This document shows positions 50,655 through 53,838 of a DNA stretch of 64,000 bases, in pieces; position 1 is the stretch's first letter; each line of letters starts with the position of its first letter. The stretch is from the NCBI RefSeq assembly GCF_024502345.1, contig NZ_JALDNN010000002.1, one strand, 5' to 3'. The DNA is from Escherichia coli (GTDB lineage Bacteria > Pseudomonadota > Gammaproteobacteria > Enterobacterales > Enterobacteriaceae). The notes under the pieces are model-generated. The model was not told the origin of the DNA, made no database searches, and saw only the letters and a list, made by a program, of their open reading frames with translations. Made by a program: the position numbers and the translations under genes.

Positions 50655-51731
50655 ATGCGGTACGCTCTGGCGTATACTTTTCCCCGATTTTTCACGCAGC
50701 GCGCCGGACGCTTTCCGGCCCGGACGGAGCCCCGGATGACACTGATGCCTGACGATGAACCCGAGCAGCTCCCGCCACCGGCGGTCATTCCACCTGATGG
50801 GGATTTCCTGCCGGCGCTGGTTGGTACTGAAAGCCCGGTCGGTCCCGCCCGGGCCTACCTGCTTTCCCTCAATTCCCCCCGCAGCCGGCAGACCATGGCC
50901 TCGTTCCTCGGTATTGTTGCCGGCATGCTCGGCGCCGCGTCCCTGGAGTCCTGCAGCTGGGGCAGCCTGCGCCGTCATCACGTTATGGCCGTGACCGAGC
51001 TCCTGCGCGACACCGGCCGGGCCACGGCGACCGTCAACACCTATCTTTCGGCACTCAAGGGGGTGGCGAAGGAAGCCTGGATGCTGAAACTCATGGACGT
51101 CGAGAGCTTCCAGCACATCCGGGCGGTGCGTAACCTTAGGGGCAGCCGCCTGCCGCGCGGCCGGGCCCTGCCGCCGGAGGAGATACGGGCGCTGTTTGGT
51201 GCCTGCGAGGCCGATGACTCCAGCATCGGGGTACGCGATGCGGCAATGCTGGCCGTCATTCTCGGCTGCGGCCTGCGCCGGTCAGAGGCGGTAGGGCTGG
51301 ATTTGCGTGACGTTGTCACAGATGAGCGGGCGCTCCGGGTGCTGGGTAAGGGAAACAAGGAGCGGCTGGCCTATATGCCGGCGGGCACCTGGCAGCGGCT
51401 AAGGACGTGGATCGATGACGTGCGGGGAGAAAAAGACGGGCCGTTGTTCACCCGTATCCGCCGCTTTGACACCCTGACGAACGACCGGCTGACCGACCAG
51501 GCGGTGTATCACGTCCTGCAGGTCCGCCAGCGCCAGGCGGGGGTTACAAAATGTGCCCCGCACGATTTAAGGCGAACTTTTGCCACCGCCATGCTCGATA
51601 ATGGCGAGGATCTCATCACGGTAAAGGACGCGATGGGGCATGCCAGCGTCACCACCACCCAGCAGTACGATCGCCGCGGCGAAGCGCGCCTGCGCACGGC
51701 CCGCGATCGCCTGAATCTGACTGACATTTAA
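50655..51731 (+). CDS. xerC: Tyrosine site-specific recombinase (XerC/XerD-like integrase), immediately upstream of mcr
   Basis: C-terminal catalytic region HDLRRTFATAMLDNGEDLITVKDAMGHASVTTTQQYD; true start may be an internal Met. Confidence 0.85.
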   Translation: MRYALAYTFPRFFTQRAGRFPARTEPRMTLMPDDEPEQLPPPAVIPPDGDFLPALVGTESPVGPARAYLLSLNSPRSRQTMASFLGIVAGMLGAASLESCSWGSLRRHHVMAVTELLRDTGRATATVNTYLSALKGVAKEAWMLKLMDVESFQHIRAVRNLRGSRLPRGRALPPEEIRALFGACEADDSSIGVRDAAMLAVILGCGLRRSEAVGLDLRDVVTDERALRVLGKGNKERLAYMPAGTWQRLRTWIDDVRGEKDGPLFTRIRRFDTLTNDRLTDQAVYHVLQVRQRQAGVTKCAPHDLRRTFATAMLDNGEDLITVKDAMGHASVTTTQQYDRRGEARLRTARDRLNLTDI

Positions 51732-52097
51732 TATCATATTAAGTTAATAACTTAACAAGAAACCGTAACAGTAATGCCGGTGGCAGCCGTGCTGCTGTCA
51801 TATCCGGTACTGTCTGAACAGAGGAGGCGGAACTCCGGACTACGCTGCTTCCCCTGTTGCGCAGTCTGAAGGACGTCTTCATCTTTTCCCTTCGGTAAAC
51901 GGCCAGCTGGCTGCTCCGCTTTGTATCCCAATACCGCTACCGGCGACTCAGGCCGGATACCAGAGATAACTCACTGATTGGGTACTAGTCATTAAAAAAT
52001 AGTTTCGCTTAGGAACCGCCGGGTCTGATAACCTGTTGCCCTTTTTCTGGTGCAACCTGTGACCCCGGGCGGGGACATATTATTGATGGAGATCGTA

Positions 52098-53717
52098 ATG
52101 CCCGTACTTTTCAGGATGAGGGTAATCCCCTTGGTTTTACTTCTGGCACTCGTTTTTGCATTCTTACTTAACTGGCCGGTGTTGCTGCATTTCTACGATA
52201 TCCTGAGCCGTCTTGAACATGTGAGGGCGGGGTTCGTCATCTCCATTCCGTTTGTGCTGGTTGCAGCGCTTAACTTTGTGTTTATGCCCTTCTCGGTTCG
52301 CTACCTGCTCAAACCCTTCTTTGCCCTGTTGCTGGTCACCGGTTCGGTGGTGAGTTACGCCACACTGAAATATAAAGTGATGTTTGATCAGTCCATGATC
52401 GAAAATATACTGGAAACAAACCCACAGGAAGCGCATGCCTACCTGAATGGCTCACTGGTGCTGTGGCTGGTCTTCATGGGCATTCTTCCGGCTATCCTGT
52501 TGTTTTTGATTAAAATTGAATATGCAGACAAATGGTACAAAGGGGTTGCCCACCGGCTGCTTTCCATGCTCGCTTCGCTGATCCTGATTGCAGGTGTTGC
52601 CGCTCTGTATTACCAGGATTATGCTTCTGTCGGGCGCAATAACCCGACGCTGAACAAAGAAATTATCCCGGCAAACTATGCGTACAGCACTTTCCATTAC
52701 GTGAAGGATACCTATTTTACGACGAAAATGCCTTTCCGGACGCTGGGGGATGATGCAAGGCGCGTTACCCGGAATGGTAAACCCACGCTGATGTTCCTGG
52801 TAATTGGCGAAACGGCACGGAGCCAGAATTTCTCCATGAACGGCTACCCGCGTGACACAAATGCCTTTACCAGCAAAATCGATGGCGTTATTTCGTTCAG
52901 GAATATGCGTTCCTGTGGCACGGCGACCGCAGTCTCGGTGCCCTGTATGTTCTCGGATATGAACCGGACGGATTACGATGGTAAAAAGGCTGCCGGCAGT
53001 GAAAATGTCCTCGACATCGTGCAGAAAACGGGGGTTTCGCTGTTGTGGAAAGAAAACGATGGCGGGTGTAAAGGCGTATGCAGCCGTATCCCGACTGTCG
53101 AAATTAATCCCGGTATCAGTAAAAAACTGTGTGACGGTAAAACCTGCTATGACGATGTTATGCTGGAAAACCTGGATACCGAAATCGGCAAAATGGCCGG
53201 AGACAAGCTGATCGCCTTCCATATGATTGGCAGCCATGGACCGACCTATTACCAGCGTTATCCGGCAGAGCATCGTCACTTCATGCCGGAATGTGCGCGC
53301 AGCGATATCGAAAACTGCACGCAGGAACAGCTGGTTAATACCTACGACAATACCATTCGCCACACCGACTATGTGTTAGCGCAGATGATTGAAAAGCTTA
53401 AGCAATACAGCGAACAGTACAACACCGTACTGCTGTATGTGTCCGATCACGGCGAATCTCTGGGAGAGAGCGGACTGTATCTGCACGGTACCCCCTACAA
53501 ACTGGCACCGGATCAGCAGACGCACATCCCGATGCAGCTCTGGATGTCGCCAAGCTTCATTGCTGCTAAAAATATTAACGCCGCGTGTCTGCAGCATAAT
53601 GCCGTTAACAGGACATATTCCCACGATAACCTTTTCGCGTCCGTACTGGGGCTCTGGGACATCACCACCGGGGCCTATCTTCCGGAAAGCGACCTGTTCC
53701 GCGAATGTCGTGGATAG
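52098..53717 (+). CDS. mcr-10: MCR-9/MCR-10-lineage phosphoethanolamine-lipid A transferase (colistin resistance); xerC adjacency and IncFIA backbone favour mcr-10-like
   Basis: 539 aa from MPVLFRMRVIPLVLLLALVFAFLLNWPVLLHFYD...; N-terminal TM domain plus sulfatase-like catalytic domain; allele assigned from memory, not alignment. Confidence 0.8.
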   Translation: MPVLFRMRVIPLVLLLALVFAFLLNWPVLLHFYDILSRLEHVRAGFVISIPFVLVAALNFVFMPFSVRYLLKPFFALLLVTGSVVSYATLKYKVMFDQSMIENILETNPQEAHAYLNGSLVLWLVFMGILPAILLFLIKIEYADKWYKGVAHRLLSMLASLILIAGVAALYYQDYASVGRNNPTLNKEIIPANYAYSTFHYVKDTYFTTKMPFRTLGDDARRVTRNGKPTLMFLVIGETARSQNFSMNGYPRDTNAFTSKIDGVISFRNMRSCGTATAVSVPCMFSDMNRTDYDGKKAAGSENVLDIVQKTGVSLLWKENDGGCKGVCSRIPTVEINPGISKKLCDGKTCYDDVMLENLDTEIGKMAGDKLIAFHMIGSHGPTYYQRYPAEHRHFMPECARSDIENCTQEQLVNTYDNTIRHTDYVLAQMIEKLKQYSEQYNTVLLYVSDHGESLGESGLYLHGTPYKLAPDQQTHIPMQLWMSPSFIAAKNINAACLQHNAVNRTYSHDNLFASVLGLWDITTGAYLPESDLFRECRG

Positions 53718-53809
53718 CCTACATACTCGGTCGATTTCCGGAAACAAACAGCCTGCTGCCGGAAATTATAAAATTTTGCTGACGGCGTGCATGCCGTCAG
53801 CGCCTGTTT

Positions 53810-53838
53810 GCCTGCTCCCGAAGCAGGCATTTTTTTAC
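53810..53838 (+). terminator. Rho-independent terminator downstream of mcr
   Basis: GCCTGCTCCCGAAGCAGGC hairpin followed by ATTTTTTTA. Confidence 0.7.

Follow-up and report, generated by a model that had tools for sequence, protein, structure and literature searches.

[quoted passage not shown] 2020, PMC7067168). A conserved xerC-mcr-10.1-orf336-orf177 region has been published (PMC9431528), as has a 32-bp "xerC attL" of mcr-10.1 plasmids for which attR was not found (PMC9769640), while Yang et al. 2021 (AAC 65:e01717-20), as cited in PMC9045214, report a pair of sites on either side of the module on a Cronobacter plasmid. [quoted passage not shown]

The window, the whole 64-kb stretch of E. 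coli DNA that was analysed, contains the same arrangement, and we conclude with considerable confidence that the segment at 50655-53838 is the published plasmid-borne xerC-mcr-10 colistin-resistance module on an IncFIA/IncFIB plasmid. The preliminary description of this DNA had proposed a xerC-type recombinase gene followed, about 360 bp downstream, by a co-directional 539-aa transferase gene. Both reading frames were found, separated by 366 bp from recombinase stop to transferase start, and the published reports to which it referred bear out this pairing and the IncF context (PMC7067168, PMC9431528). The gene, its recombinase partner, the candidate recombination site and the IS context are thus already in the literature, and the plasmid as such is very probably published too: the E. 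coli host, the xerC-mcr-10-ISEc36-pinR order and a fimbria island about 4.5 kb upstream are shared with pMCR_10_2641, of which, on the basis of size, host and gene layout, the window very probably represents the first 64 kb. What is added here is modest, consisting of a one-residue allele difference, the occurrence of a single site, and the presence of the recombinase and site on mcr-free plasmids.

At least 80% of the segment is carried by 47 plasmids from eight genera at 97.7-100% identity, which, with the score against the MCR-10 model given below, speaks against a chance resemblance. With pMCR10_090065 the window shares the recombinase gene, the 366-bp spacer, the downstream 472 nt and the ISEc36 insertion point; in both, an IS903-group element lies upstream and the plasmid is of IncFIA type. 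The recombinase of pMCR10_090065 is two residues removed from that of the window, which is the commoner WP_023332838.1. The window further differs from pMCR10_090065 in the substitution G486S (base 53553), in the ISEc33 and flank A that separate the site from the IS903-group element, and in truncation of ISEc36 by a pinR-like fragment and IS26. The nearest sequenced relatives of the region are pEC81-mcr10 (NZ_CP088133.1) and pI9455333_MCR10 (NZ_CP122443.1), both of which, unlike the window, carry plain mcr-10.1. In pI9455333_MCR10, from E. ludwigii, fimbria genes, IS110, IS903-group element, ISEc33, xerC and mcr-10 follow in the same order as in the window and continue with truncated ISEc36, pinR and IS26, whereas pEC81-mcr10 has ISSen4 in place of ISEc33. 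Over its first 25 kb the window is a different mosaic from either plasmid.

Features of the window, with positions counted from its first nucleotide
Feature	Position	Strand	Basis or remark
RepFIB-type replication initiator gene (IncFIB)	1-1011	+	Pfam Rep3_N, Rep3_C
repE replication initiator gene (IncFIA)	9287-10042	+	Pfam Rep3_N, 7.7e-30
IS903-group (IS5 family) element	46395-48876	-	split by IS110-family element
IS110-family element (~1.4 kb), transposase	46481-47557	+	NCBIfam IS110 transposase
IS903-group transposase gene	47876-48844	-	NCBIfam IS5 transposase
ISEc33 (IS630 family) transposase gene	48943-49974	-	NCBIfam transpos_IS630, 257 bits
34-bp imperfect palindrome	50617-50650	+	candidate core recombination site
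Tyrosine recombinase gene "xerC", 331 aa	50736-51731	+	identical to WP_023332838.1
Spacer, recombinase to mcr-10, 366 bp	51732-52097	+	
mcr-10 allele (phosphoethanolamine-lipid A transferase, 539 aa)	52098-53717	+	NF033862, 1314 bits
orf336	53675-54010	-	ORF list; name from PMC9431528
Two back-to-back terminator-like hairpins	53778-53836		just after mcr-10
Truncated ISEc36 (IS3 family, IS2 group)	54190-55377	+	1188 of 1332 bp
pinR-like serine recombinase ORF	55410-56069	-	annotated WP_023332835.1
IS26	55997-56816	+	terminal repeat at 55997

The transferase begins with MPVLF, preceded 7 nt upstream by a GGAG ribosome-binding site, and was matched over its entire length (residues 1-539 of 539) by the MCR-10 model NCBIfam NF033862 with 1314.1 bits (E = 0), exceeding the curated cut-off of 1250 bits that defines membership of the MCR-10 family. 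Scores were below the cut-offs of the models for MCR-9 (1107 vs 1240 bits), MCR-13 (1092 vs 1250 bits) and MCR-3, such that of the MCR-9/MCR-10-type assignment made initially the MCR-10 part is retained and the MCR-9 part is not. With MCR-1 residues E246, T285, H395, D465, H466 and H478 as reference, the zinc-binding and nucleophile set E238, T275, H380, D450, H451 and H463 is conserved within the motifs of the protein, in agreement with the sulfatase-like catalytic domain noted in the preliminary description, and the full-length protein aligns to Neisseria EptA 5fgn (4.4e-125). Enzymes of the MCR/EptA family reside in the inner membrane and transfer phosphoethanolamine onto lipid A, a modification that renders the outer membrane less negative and results in low-level colistin resistance. 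By homology, the 539-aa transferase would confer low-level colistin resistance through this addition of phosphoethanolamine to lipid A. The general EptA model NF008619 also matched, with 616 bits, as it might if the gene were an intrinsic, non-mobile EptA-type housekeeping gene and not an mcr gene; this score is, however, under that model's own cut-off of 660 bits while the MCR-10 model is passed, the gene is plasmid-borne, in the company of Rep genes and numerous insertion sequences, and near-identical copies occur in the 47 plasmids from eight genera. The MCR-10 score and these plasmid copies refute an intrinsic EptA identity, the probability of which is negligible, and the best match was not the chromosomal non-MCR EptA-family protein which the preliminary description had itself named as counter-evidence.

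The initial mcr-10-type assignment holds for the family, but the protein is one residue removed from MCR-10.1 (WP_023332837.1), with 538 of 539 residues equal. The difference results from one base, A for G at 53553, which converts a GGC codon to AGC and glycine 486 to serine. The exact G486S protein corresponds to WP_256632875.1, named by NCBI only as "MCR-10 family" with no allele number, and was found on one E. coli contig among about 15 billion proteins, whose 123,900 nt agree with the size of pMCR_10_2641; the substitution is not mentioned in PMC9311939. Residues equivalent to 486 are A in Neisseria EptA and K in MCR-1, and as the position is variable among homologues, the substitution is probably functionally neutral and the variant enzyme would be expected to be active. 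Between 50173 and 56819 (6647 nt), base 53553 is the sole difference from pEC81-mcr10. A lone G-to-A change within 6647 otherwise identical bases, together with restriction of the variant protein to a single contig in so large a search, could also indicate an assembly or sequencing error in a true mcr-10.1 gene. We regard such an error as unlikely, however, as the source assembly was reported to combine long and short reads, which usually clears single-base errors, and single-residue MCR-10 variants are common within the same protein cluster. G486S may represent a genuine un-numbered MCR-10 allele.

The longest reading frame of the recombinase extends from 50655 to 51731 on the + strand (358 aa), with the RefSeq start at the ATG at 50736. 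Membership of the tyrosine recombinase superfamily, defined by a PF00589 domain and an R-K-H-R-H/W-Y set, is evident from a match to Pfam Phage_integrase (PF00589, 1.7e-31) and from the intact catalytic residues R182, K205, H276, R279, H302 and Y311. The protein scored under the equivalog cut-offs for both XerC (TIGR02224, 148 vs 335 bits) and XerD (TIGR02225, 131 vs 330 bits), and among solved structures XerD and XerC-like proteins are its closest relatives. Thus, "xerC" is a literature label only and the protein is a generic Xer-like tyrosine recombinase; the XerC/D-like enzyme originally proposed stands as a tyrosine recombinase with its complete catalytic set but not as XerC or XerD. Within the spacer, homology to an mcr-free recombinase lineage ends at 51764 and homology to an mcr-10-like gene without xerC begins at 51946.

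The search of the flanks for Xer-type sites that the preliminary description had advised returned one site, the palindrome TCTACTAATTAAAA-TGTACG-TTTGAGAAAGTAGA (14+6+14), whose arms agree at 11 of 14 positions and which the recombinase ATG follows at a distance of 85 bp. It has the layout of a tyrosine recombinase core site, taken here as inverted arms around a centre of 6-8 bp, adjoining a recombinase gene and situated where flanks change, and the same site is carried by the mcr-free lineage. Shared sequence begins at the palindrome in 20 mcr-10-type copies (19 loci and the window), in which five different left flanks are joined at this point. Judged by these features of sequence and position, the palindrome is likely to be the core site of the recombinase. 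The published attL (PMC9769640) is the reverse complement of 50618-50649 with one mismatch, the window having A instead of T at 50623, a base that travels with the left flank; in both cases some 85-95 bp separate the site from the recombinase gene downstream.

Site searches were performed with a 20-mer allowing up to 5 mismatches, with an arm-spacer-arm pattern and with a sliding 34-mer at 21 or more positions, and covered the window, 29 loci and then L030 (a 50-kb stretch), L032 and L033. The 64-kb window contains no second site at 22 or more of 34 positions. One site per stretch, with stretches of 10-50 kb as the basis of the count, was observed in the 29 loci and the window; L030, L032 and L033 contained only the site upstream of the recombinase, and no second site was found within 50 kb rightward in CP048651. 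The 9-bp "IR-2" named in PMC9769640 (TCAAACGTA) was rejected as a site in pKP46-mcr10, where it lies ~380 bp inside the right junction and does not belong to a site-like sequence. The right junction of that plasmid contains no copy of the site, and a match to a 9-mer within ~15 kb is, as a rough estimate, not far from chance. A dif-like reading of the palindrome, made by eye, was set aside, since the resemblance goes no further than two inverted arms about a 6-bp centre and a similar hexamer in the middle, TGTACG here and what we take to be TGTATA in dif.

The insertion sequences on both sides correspond to those of the preliminary description, each in refined form. Its upstream IS903 is an IS903-group element interrupted by an IS110-family element. 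Exact 18-bp terminal repeats, identified by comparison with what we take to be the IS903 terminal repeat, are located at 46395 and 48876; the element is 99.1% identical to that named IS903 in pMCR10_090065, and the intact copy at 25311-26367 can be aligned with it over 47828-48876 alone (88.8%). The IS630-family element is ISEc33, RefSeq annotating the identical stretch of pI9455333_MCR10 as "IS630-like element ISEc33". Immediately downstream of mcr-10, hairpin stems at 53778-53801 (-) and 53809-53829 (+) are followed by a T-run, and the end of the segment at 53838 coincides with the hairpin and T-run at 53809-53836. A terminator-like hairpin therefore lies within orf336, which makes the protein-coding status of this ORF doubtful. 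The truncated IS2 of the preliminary description is a truncated ISEc36 that begins 472 nt past the mcr-10 stop codon, is 99.96% identical over 54190-55377 to ISEc36 annotated in two other loci (L005, L006), and encodes IS2 TnpA (264 bits) and a TnpB covering 259 of 301 model positions. Its left terminal repeat is situated at the same nucleotide in the window and in 15 of 15 element-bearing loci, while its right end is missing, so that the element is not a complete ISEc36. The pinR-like ORF is chimeric, its first ~73 nt lying inside IS26 and its NCBIfam invertase/resolvase matches starting at residue 24-26, and IS26 is oriented as is the copy at 21748-22567.

The IncFIA/IncFIB backbone that had been proposed is confirmed by the presence of two Rep3-family initiator genes, both 100% identical to genes of pHH107-3, which MOB-suite types as IncFIA, IncFIB. 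The RepFIB-type gene matches 2883 plasmids, mostly of Klebsiella, and its protein had no match among NCBIfam models; repE is identical to genes annotated repE, that of pHH107-3 included, with identity spanning 9239-10042.

Combined, these results suggest that the copy in the window is a stranded module, its right side cut by ISEc36 and then occupied by the chimeric pinR-like gene and IS26, and with one site whose partner is absent within the 64-kb window. As the window holds a single site, the copy would not be excisable between two flanking sites and its excision by the recombinase is unlikely; a second site could lie in the half of the ~124-kb plasmid beyond the 64-kb window. Present mobility would most likely come from the IS26 and IS903-group insertion sequences around the module and from a helper plasmid that mobilises the IncFIA/IncFIB plasmid, not from recombinase excision. 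An intact integrative element, excised and re-inserted by the recombinase, would be consistent with the intact recombinase gene with all its catalytic residues, with the attL-type site, and with the model proposed for the Cronobacter plasmid as cited in PMC9045214. For the copy in the window this is very improbable, however, as attL and attR do not both surround the recombinase and cargo within 64 kb, where no further match of at least 22 of 34 occurs, ISEc36 cuts the right side 472 nt past mcr-10 as it does in other disseminated copies, and the authors of PMC9045214 and PMC9769640 found no attR or no complete pair of sites. The Cronobacter plasmid, pMCR10_145005, is absent among the PLSDB matches listed; the two sites ascribed to it mean that the recombinase may still move the module elsewhere.

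It is also possible, though we advance this tentatively, that the recombinase and its single site are resident on the IncF-type plasmids of Enterobacter and Klebsiella as a site-specific system which, like Cre/loxP, resolves multimers or fuses plasmids, with mcr-10 as a passenger downstream. In that case single-site recombination between plasmids would swap the sequence left of the site, and it is this exchange, not the excision of a small element, that would spread the module. One site per stretch in the 29 loci and the window is consistent with such a system, as is a second recombinase lineage whose DNA is 88.5% identical: it is found with the same site on a great many mcr-free plasmids, where iron-dicitrate (fec) genes lie downstream, and it has left flanks A and B in common with the mcr-10 lineage. 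An identical right side (xerC-mcr-10-ISEc36-hsdRSM-repA) is preceded by any of three left flanks, the junction lying at the site in each case; an IS-free order of orf1152, site, xerC, mcr-10 and orf768...traI is maintained between diverged mcr-10.1 and mcr-10.2 plasmids; and on mcr-free plasmids flank D leads into a site-like sequence that stands alone, a possible partner. Under this reading, the six left flanks and the two recombinase lineages, together with the solo sites of "empty" plasmids, are signs of a swapping of plasmid arms. This reading nevertheless presupposes that the recombinase binds the site, which we infer, and the site is interpreted in the literature as attL of an integrative element (PMC9769640), two sites are ascribed to one Cronobacter plasmid (as cited in PMC9045214), chromosomal copies exist (L021, L025), and the single-site count derives from stretches of 10-50 kb and not from whole plasmids.

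The mcr-10 module as found here, a stranded copy on a plasmid that would be mobilised by a helper, with mcr-10 near fimbrial genes, is of clinical relevance although scientifically ordinary. Colistin is a last-resort antibiotic, and mobile mcr genes in E. coli are therefore relevant to surveillance, while the presence of the recombinase and site on many mcr-free plasmids bears on how mcr-10 moves. The later spread of the module is credited to ISEc36 in PMC9769640, whereas our comparisons favour an exchange of left flanks at the palindrome itself. The nearest other family, mcr-9, shows ~79.8% DNA identity across the coding region, to which its matches are confined, the xerC gene and site lying outside them. 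The Xer-dependent blaIMI/blaNMC-A elements of the Enterobacter cloacae complex are the cited precedent for a Xer-like recombinase beside a resistance gene (PMC7067168), but these elements use chromosomal dif-type sites, whereas the recombinase of the mcr-10 module falls outside both the XerC and XerD equivalog models.

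The pairing of a recombinase gene with a transferase gene is real and far beyond chance. Both reading frames are present on the plus strand, co-directional as stated in the preliminary description, and the gap between them, estimated there at ~360 bp, measures 366 bp. The start of mcr-10 annotated by RefSeq is ATG 52098, with a GGAG ribosome-binding site 7 nt upstream, yielding the 539-aa protein beginning MPVLF that had been described. Of the MCR-9/MCR-10 type originally proposed, the MCR-10 part stood, as the protein scores 1314 bits with the MCR-10 family model of NCBIfam (cut-off 1250) but 1107 with the MCR-9 model (cut-off 1240); scores with the NCBIfam MCR-13, MCR-3 and EptA models are also below their cut-offs. 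Positions 50400-54100 are matched over at least 80% of their length, at 97.7-100% identity, by 47 plasmids from Enterobacter, Klebsiella, Raoultella, Citrobacter and E. coli, nearly all of which are annotated with mcr-10.1. A terminator-like hairpin and T-run agree with the module end proposed at 53838. The published 'orf336' overlaps the end of mcr-10 and has a terminator-like hairpin (53801-53778) within it on the strand that it occupies, and may therefore not represent a real gene. An mcr-10-like gene with 97.4% protein identity is also found on pECC18A13-1 (comparison locus L028, 6001-7772), a plasmid lacking any xerC; its homology to the window is confined to 51946-53718, indicating that mcr-10 together with the 152 bp upstream of it forms a separate unit.

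Direct comparison with MCR-10.1 revealed a single amino acid difference, G486S, resulting from A instead of G at base 53553, the only mismatch to pEC81-mcr10 in 6647 nt. The exact protein is present in public data as WP_256632875.1 / MCQ7034407.1, named by NCBI only as 'MCR-10 family' and known from one E. coli contig of 123,900 nt, and the substitution could still reflect a sequencing error. Position 486 is variable, as its aligned counterpart is alanine in Neisseria EptA and lysine in MCR-1, and the zinc-binding and nucleophile residues (E238, T275, H380, D450, H451 and H463) are complete. G486S is probably functionally neutral.

Features of the mcr-10 region and its surroundings in the window
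Feature	Position	Strand	Remarks
hsdM-DUF262-WYL-TnsE-fragment block	10790-15600		truncated; inverted orientation
IS30 transposase gene	15996-17147		after hsdM-TnsE-fragment block
IS26, copy 1	21748-22567
IS903-group element, intact copy	25311-26367
Cargo block	26572-37495		redox and osmotic-stress genes
430-aa ORF	34136-35428		without NCBIfam match
Type 3 fimbria cluster	40620-46159	-	mrkA, mrkB, usher, fimbrial protein in adhesin position, mrkF
IS903-group element, split copy	46395-48876		exact IS903-type terminal repeats at 46395 and 48876
ISEc33 (IS630 family) transposase gene	48943-49974
Flank A	after ISEc33		~600 bp, AT-rich
Candidate core site	50617-50650		34-bp imperfect palindrome
Recombinase ORF ('xerC')	50655-51731	+	358 aa, ORF list; RefSeq start at internal ATG 50736, 331 aa
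ORF including mcr-10	52050-53717	+	555 aa, ORF list
'orf336'	53675-54010	-	published
Terminator-like hairpin and T-run	53809-53836
pinR-like serine-recombinase ORF	55410-56069	-	next after ISEc36
IS26, copy 2	55997-56816
IS26, copy 3	59014-59833
IS26, copy 4	63231-64000

The recombinase is identical to WP_023332838.1 and possesses a Phage_integrase domain with the full R-K-H-R-H-Y catalytic set; its scores are far below both the XerC and XerD equivalog cut-offs, and 'xerC' is therefore a label rather than a family assignment. A search of the flanks for a Xer-type recombination site was productive. In the left junctions of nine aligned mcr-10 plasmids the shared sequence starts at one point, which falls within a 34-bp imperfect palindrome, TCTACTAATTAAAA-TGTACG-TTTGAGAAAGTAGA, located 85 bp 5' of the recombinase ATG and laid out like the core site of a tyrosine recombinase. 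This palindrome is already published and not new: its reverse complement is the 32-bp 'xerC attL' of PMC9769640. The window and 29 of the examined loci each contained the site once per stretch, and a second copy was not found within 50 kb to the right of the site in CP048651; attR was not found in PMC9769640 either, nor a complete site pair in PMC9045214, where a report of two sites in a Cronobacter plasmid is credited to Yang et al. 2021.

The mcr-10 lineage meets five different left flanks at this site, the outermost 7 nt of its left arm differing according to the flank, and an identical right-hand side (xerC-mcr-10-ISEc36-hsdRSM-repA) is paired with three different left flanks among plasmids. 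The same site is associated with a second recombinase lineage, 88.5% identical at the DNA level, which is found on a very large number of plasmids that lack mcr, followed there by fec genes; left flanks A and B are common to both lineages, and homology between them ends 33 nt past the recombinase stop codon. The arrangement orf1152 / site / xerC / mcr-10 / orf768...traI, free of IS elements, recurs in mcr-10.1 and mcr-10.2 plasmids that have diverged from one another, and a solo site-like sequence on mcr-free plasmids with flank D could provide a recombination partner. Combined, six comparisons of flanks, lineages and sites suggest that recombination really occurs at the 34-bp site, and that it may swap plasmid arms rather than excise a small element.

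Solo palindromic sites with one right-arm base missing are present at L032 2899-2951 (pRHBSTW-00167_2) and L033 5369-5433 (pNU-CRE047_1), on mcr-free plasmids, accompanied by 50-65 nt of degenerate recombinase-leader sequence without a recombinase gene. The ~370 nt of flank D adjoining the site match ~330 Klebsiella plasmids. At loci L013 and L015 (7881-7914), left flank A adjoins the recombinase lineage of the mcr-free plasmids. The central hexamer at these loci, TGTACC, compared with TGTACG in the mcr-10 type and TGTATC in the fec type, looks hybrid, as if strands had been exchanged within the 6-bp centre, a resemblance of single bases only.

The IS903, IS630-family and truncated IS2 elements previously noted around the module were all recovered, with names refined to IS903-group, ISEc33 and truncated ISEc36. 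The upstream IS903-group element is interrupted close to its left end, where an IS110-family element of ~1.4 kb sits just inside the terminal repeat, and it shares only 88.8% identity with the intact copy, so that the window holds two different isoforms. Type 3 fimbria genes lie ~4.5 kb upstream of mcr-10 on the same plasmid; the more distant cargo block encodes a DsbA-like protein, an N-ethylmaleimide-reductase-like flavoenzyme, a TetR regulator, an OsmC-like protein and a BetT choline transporter. Downstream, the left end of ISEc36 (IS2-group, IS3-family; 1188 of 1332 bp remaining) is 472 nt past the mcr-10 stop codon. The pinR-like ORF is chimeric: the ~73 nt at its start lie within IS26 and its family match starts at residue 24-26, yet RefSeq treats it as an ordinary recombinase gene (WP_023332835.1). 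IS26 copies 2 and 3, in opposite orientations, enclose a nucleotidyltransferase/HEPN (DUF86) pair and a cupin gene. The hsdM-TnsE block, 35 kb from mcr-10, is 98.5% identical to the one that adjoins ISEc36-hsdRS on the right in other mcr-10 plasmids (CP048651), and its displacement and inversion imply IS-mediated rearrangement of an ancestral arrangement.

Since the window holds one site and the right side of the module is cut by ISEc36, the pinR fragment and IS26, this copy cannot be excised between two flanking sites. IS26 copies 1 and 2, in the same orientation with the fimbria genes and mcr-10 between them, would be a likely route, carrying 34 kb as a possible IS26 translocatable unit. The IS903-group elements would be another likely route, and a further one would be helper-plasmid mobilisation of the kind that PMC9311939 describes.

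The xerC-mcr-10 finding is correct and clinically relevant, yet known in nearly every respect; what remains new is an allele without a number, G486S, together with the interpretation of the recombinase site as a point of plasmid-arm exchange. Both Rep3-family initiator genes have 100% identical counterparts on a plasmid typed IncFIA, IncFIB, so the replicon context originally assigned was correct. E. coli EC2641, from disinfected tableware, has replicons including FIA(pBK30683) and IncFIB(K) and carries mcr-10 on pMCR_10_2641, a 123.9-kb IncFIB(K) plasmid, its transconjugants rising from 0.5 to 2 mg/L colistin (PMC9311939). In pMCR_10_2641 a type 3 fimbria island is situated 4.5 kb upstream and pinR comes immediately after xerC-mcr-10-ISEc36 (PMC9311939), a layout matched here. 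At position 1 the window opens on the first base of a RepFIB-type gene, which is where a plasmid record would be expected to start. Thus the window very probably corresponds to the first 64 kb of pMCR_10_2641.
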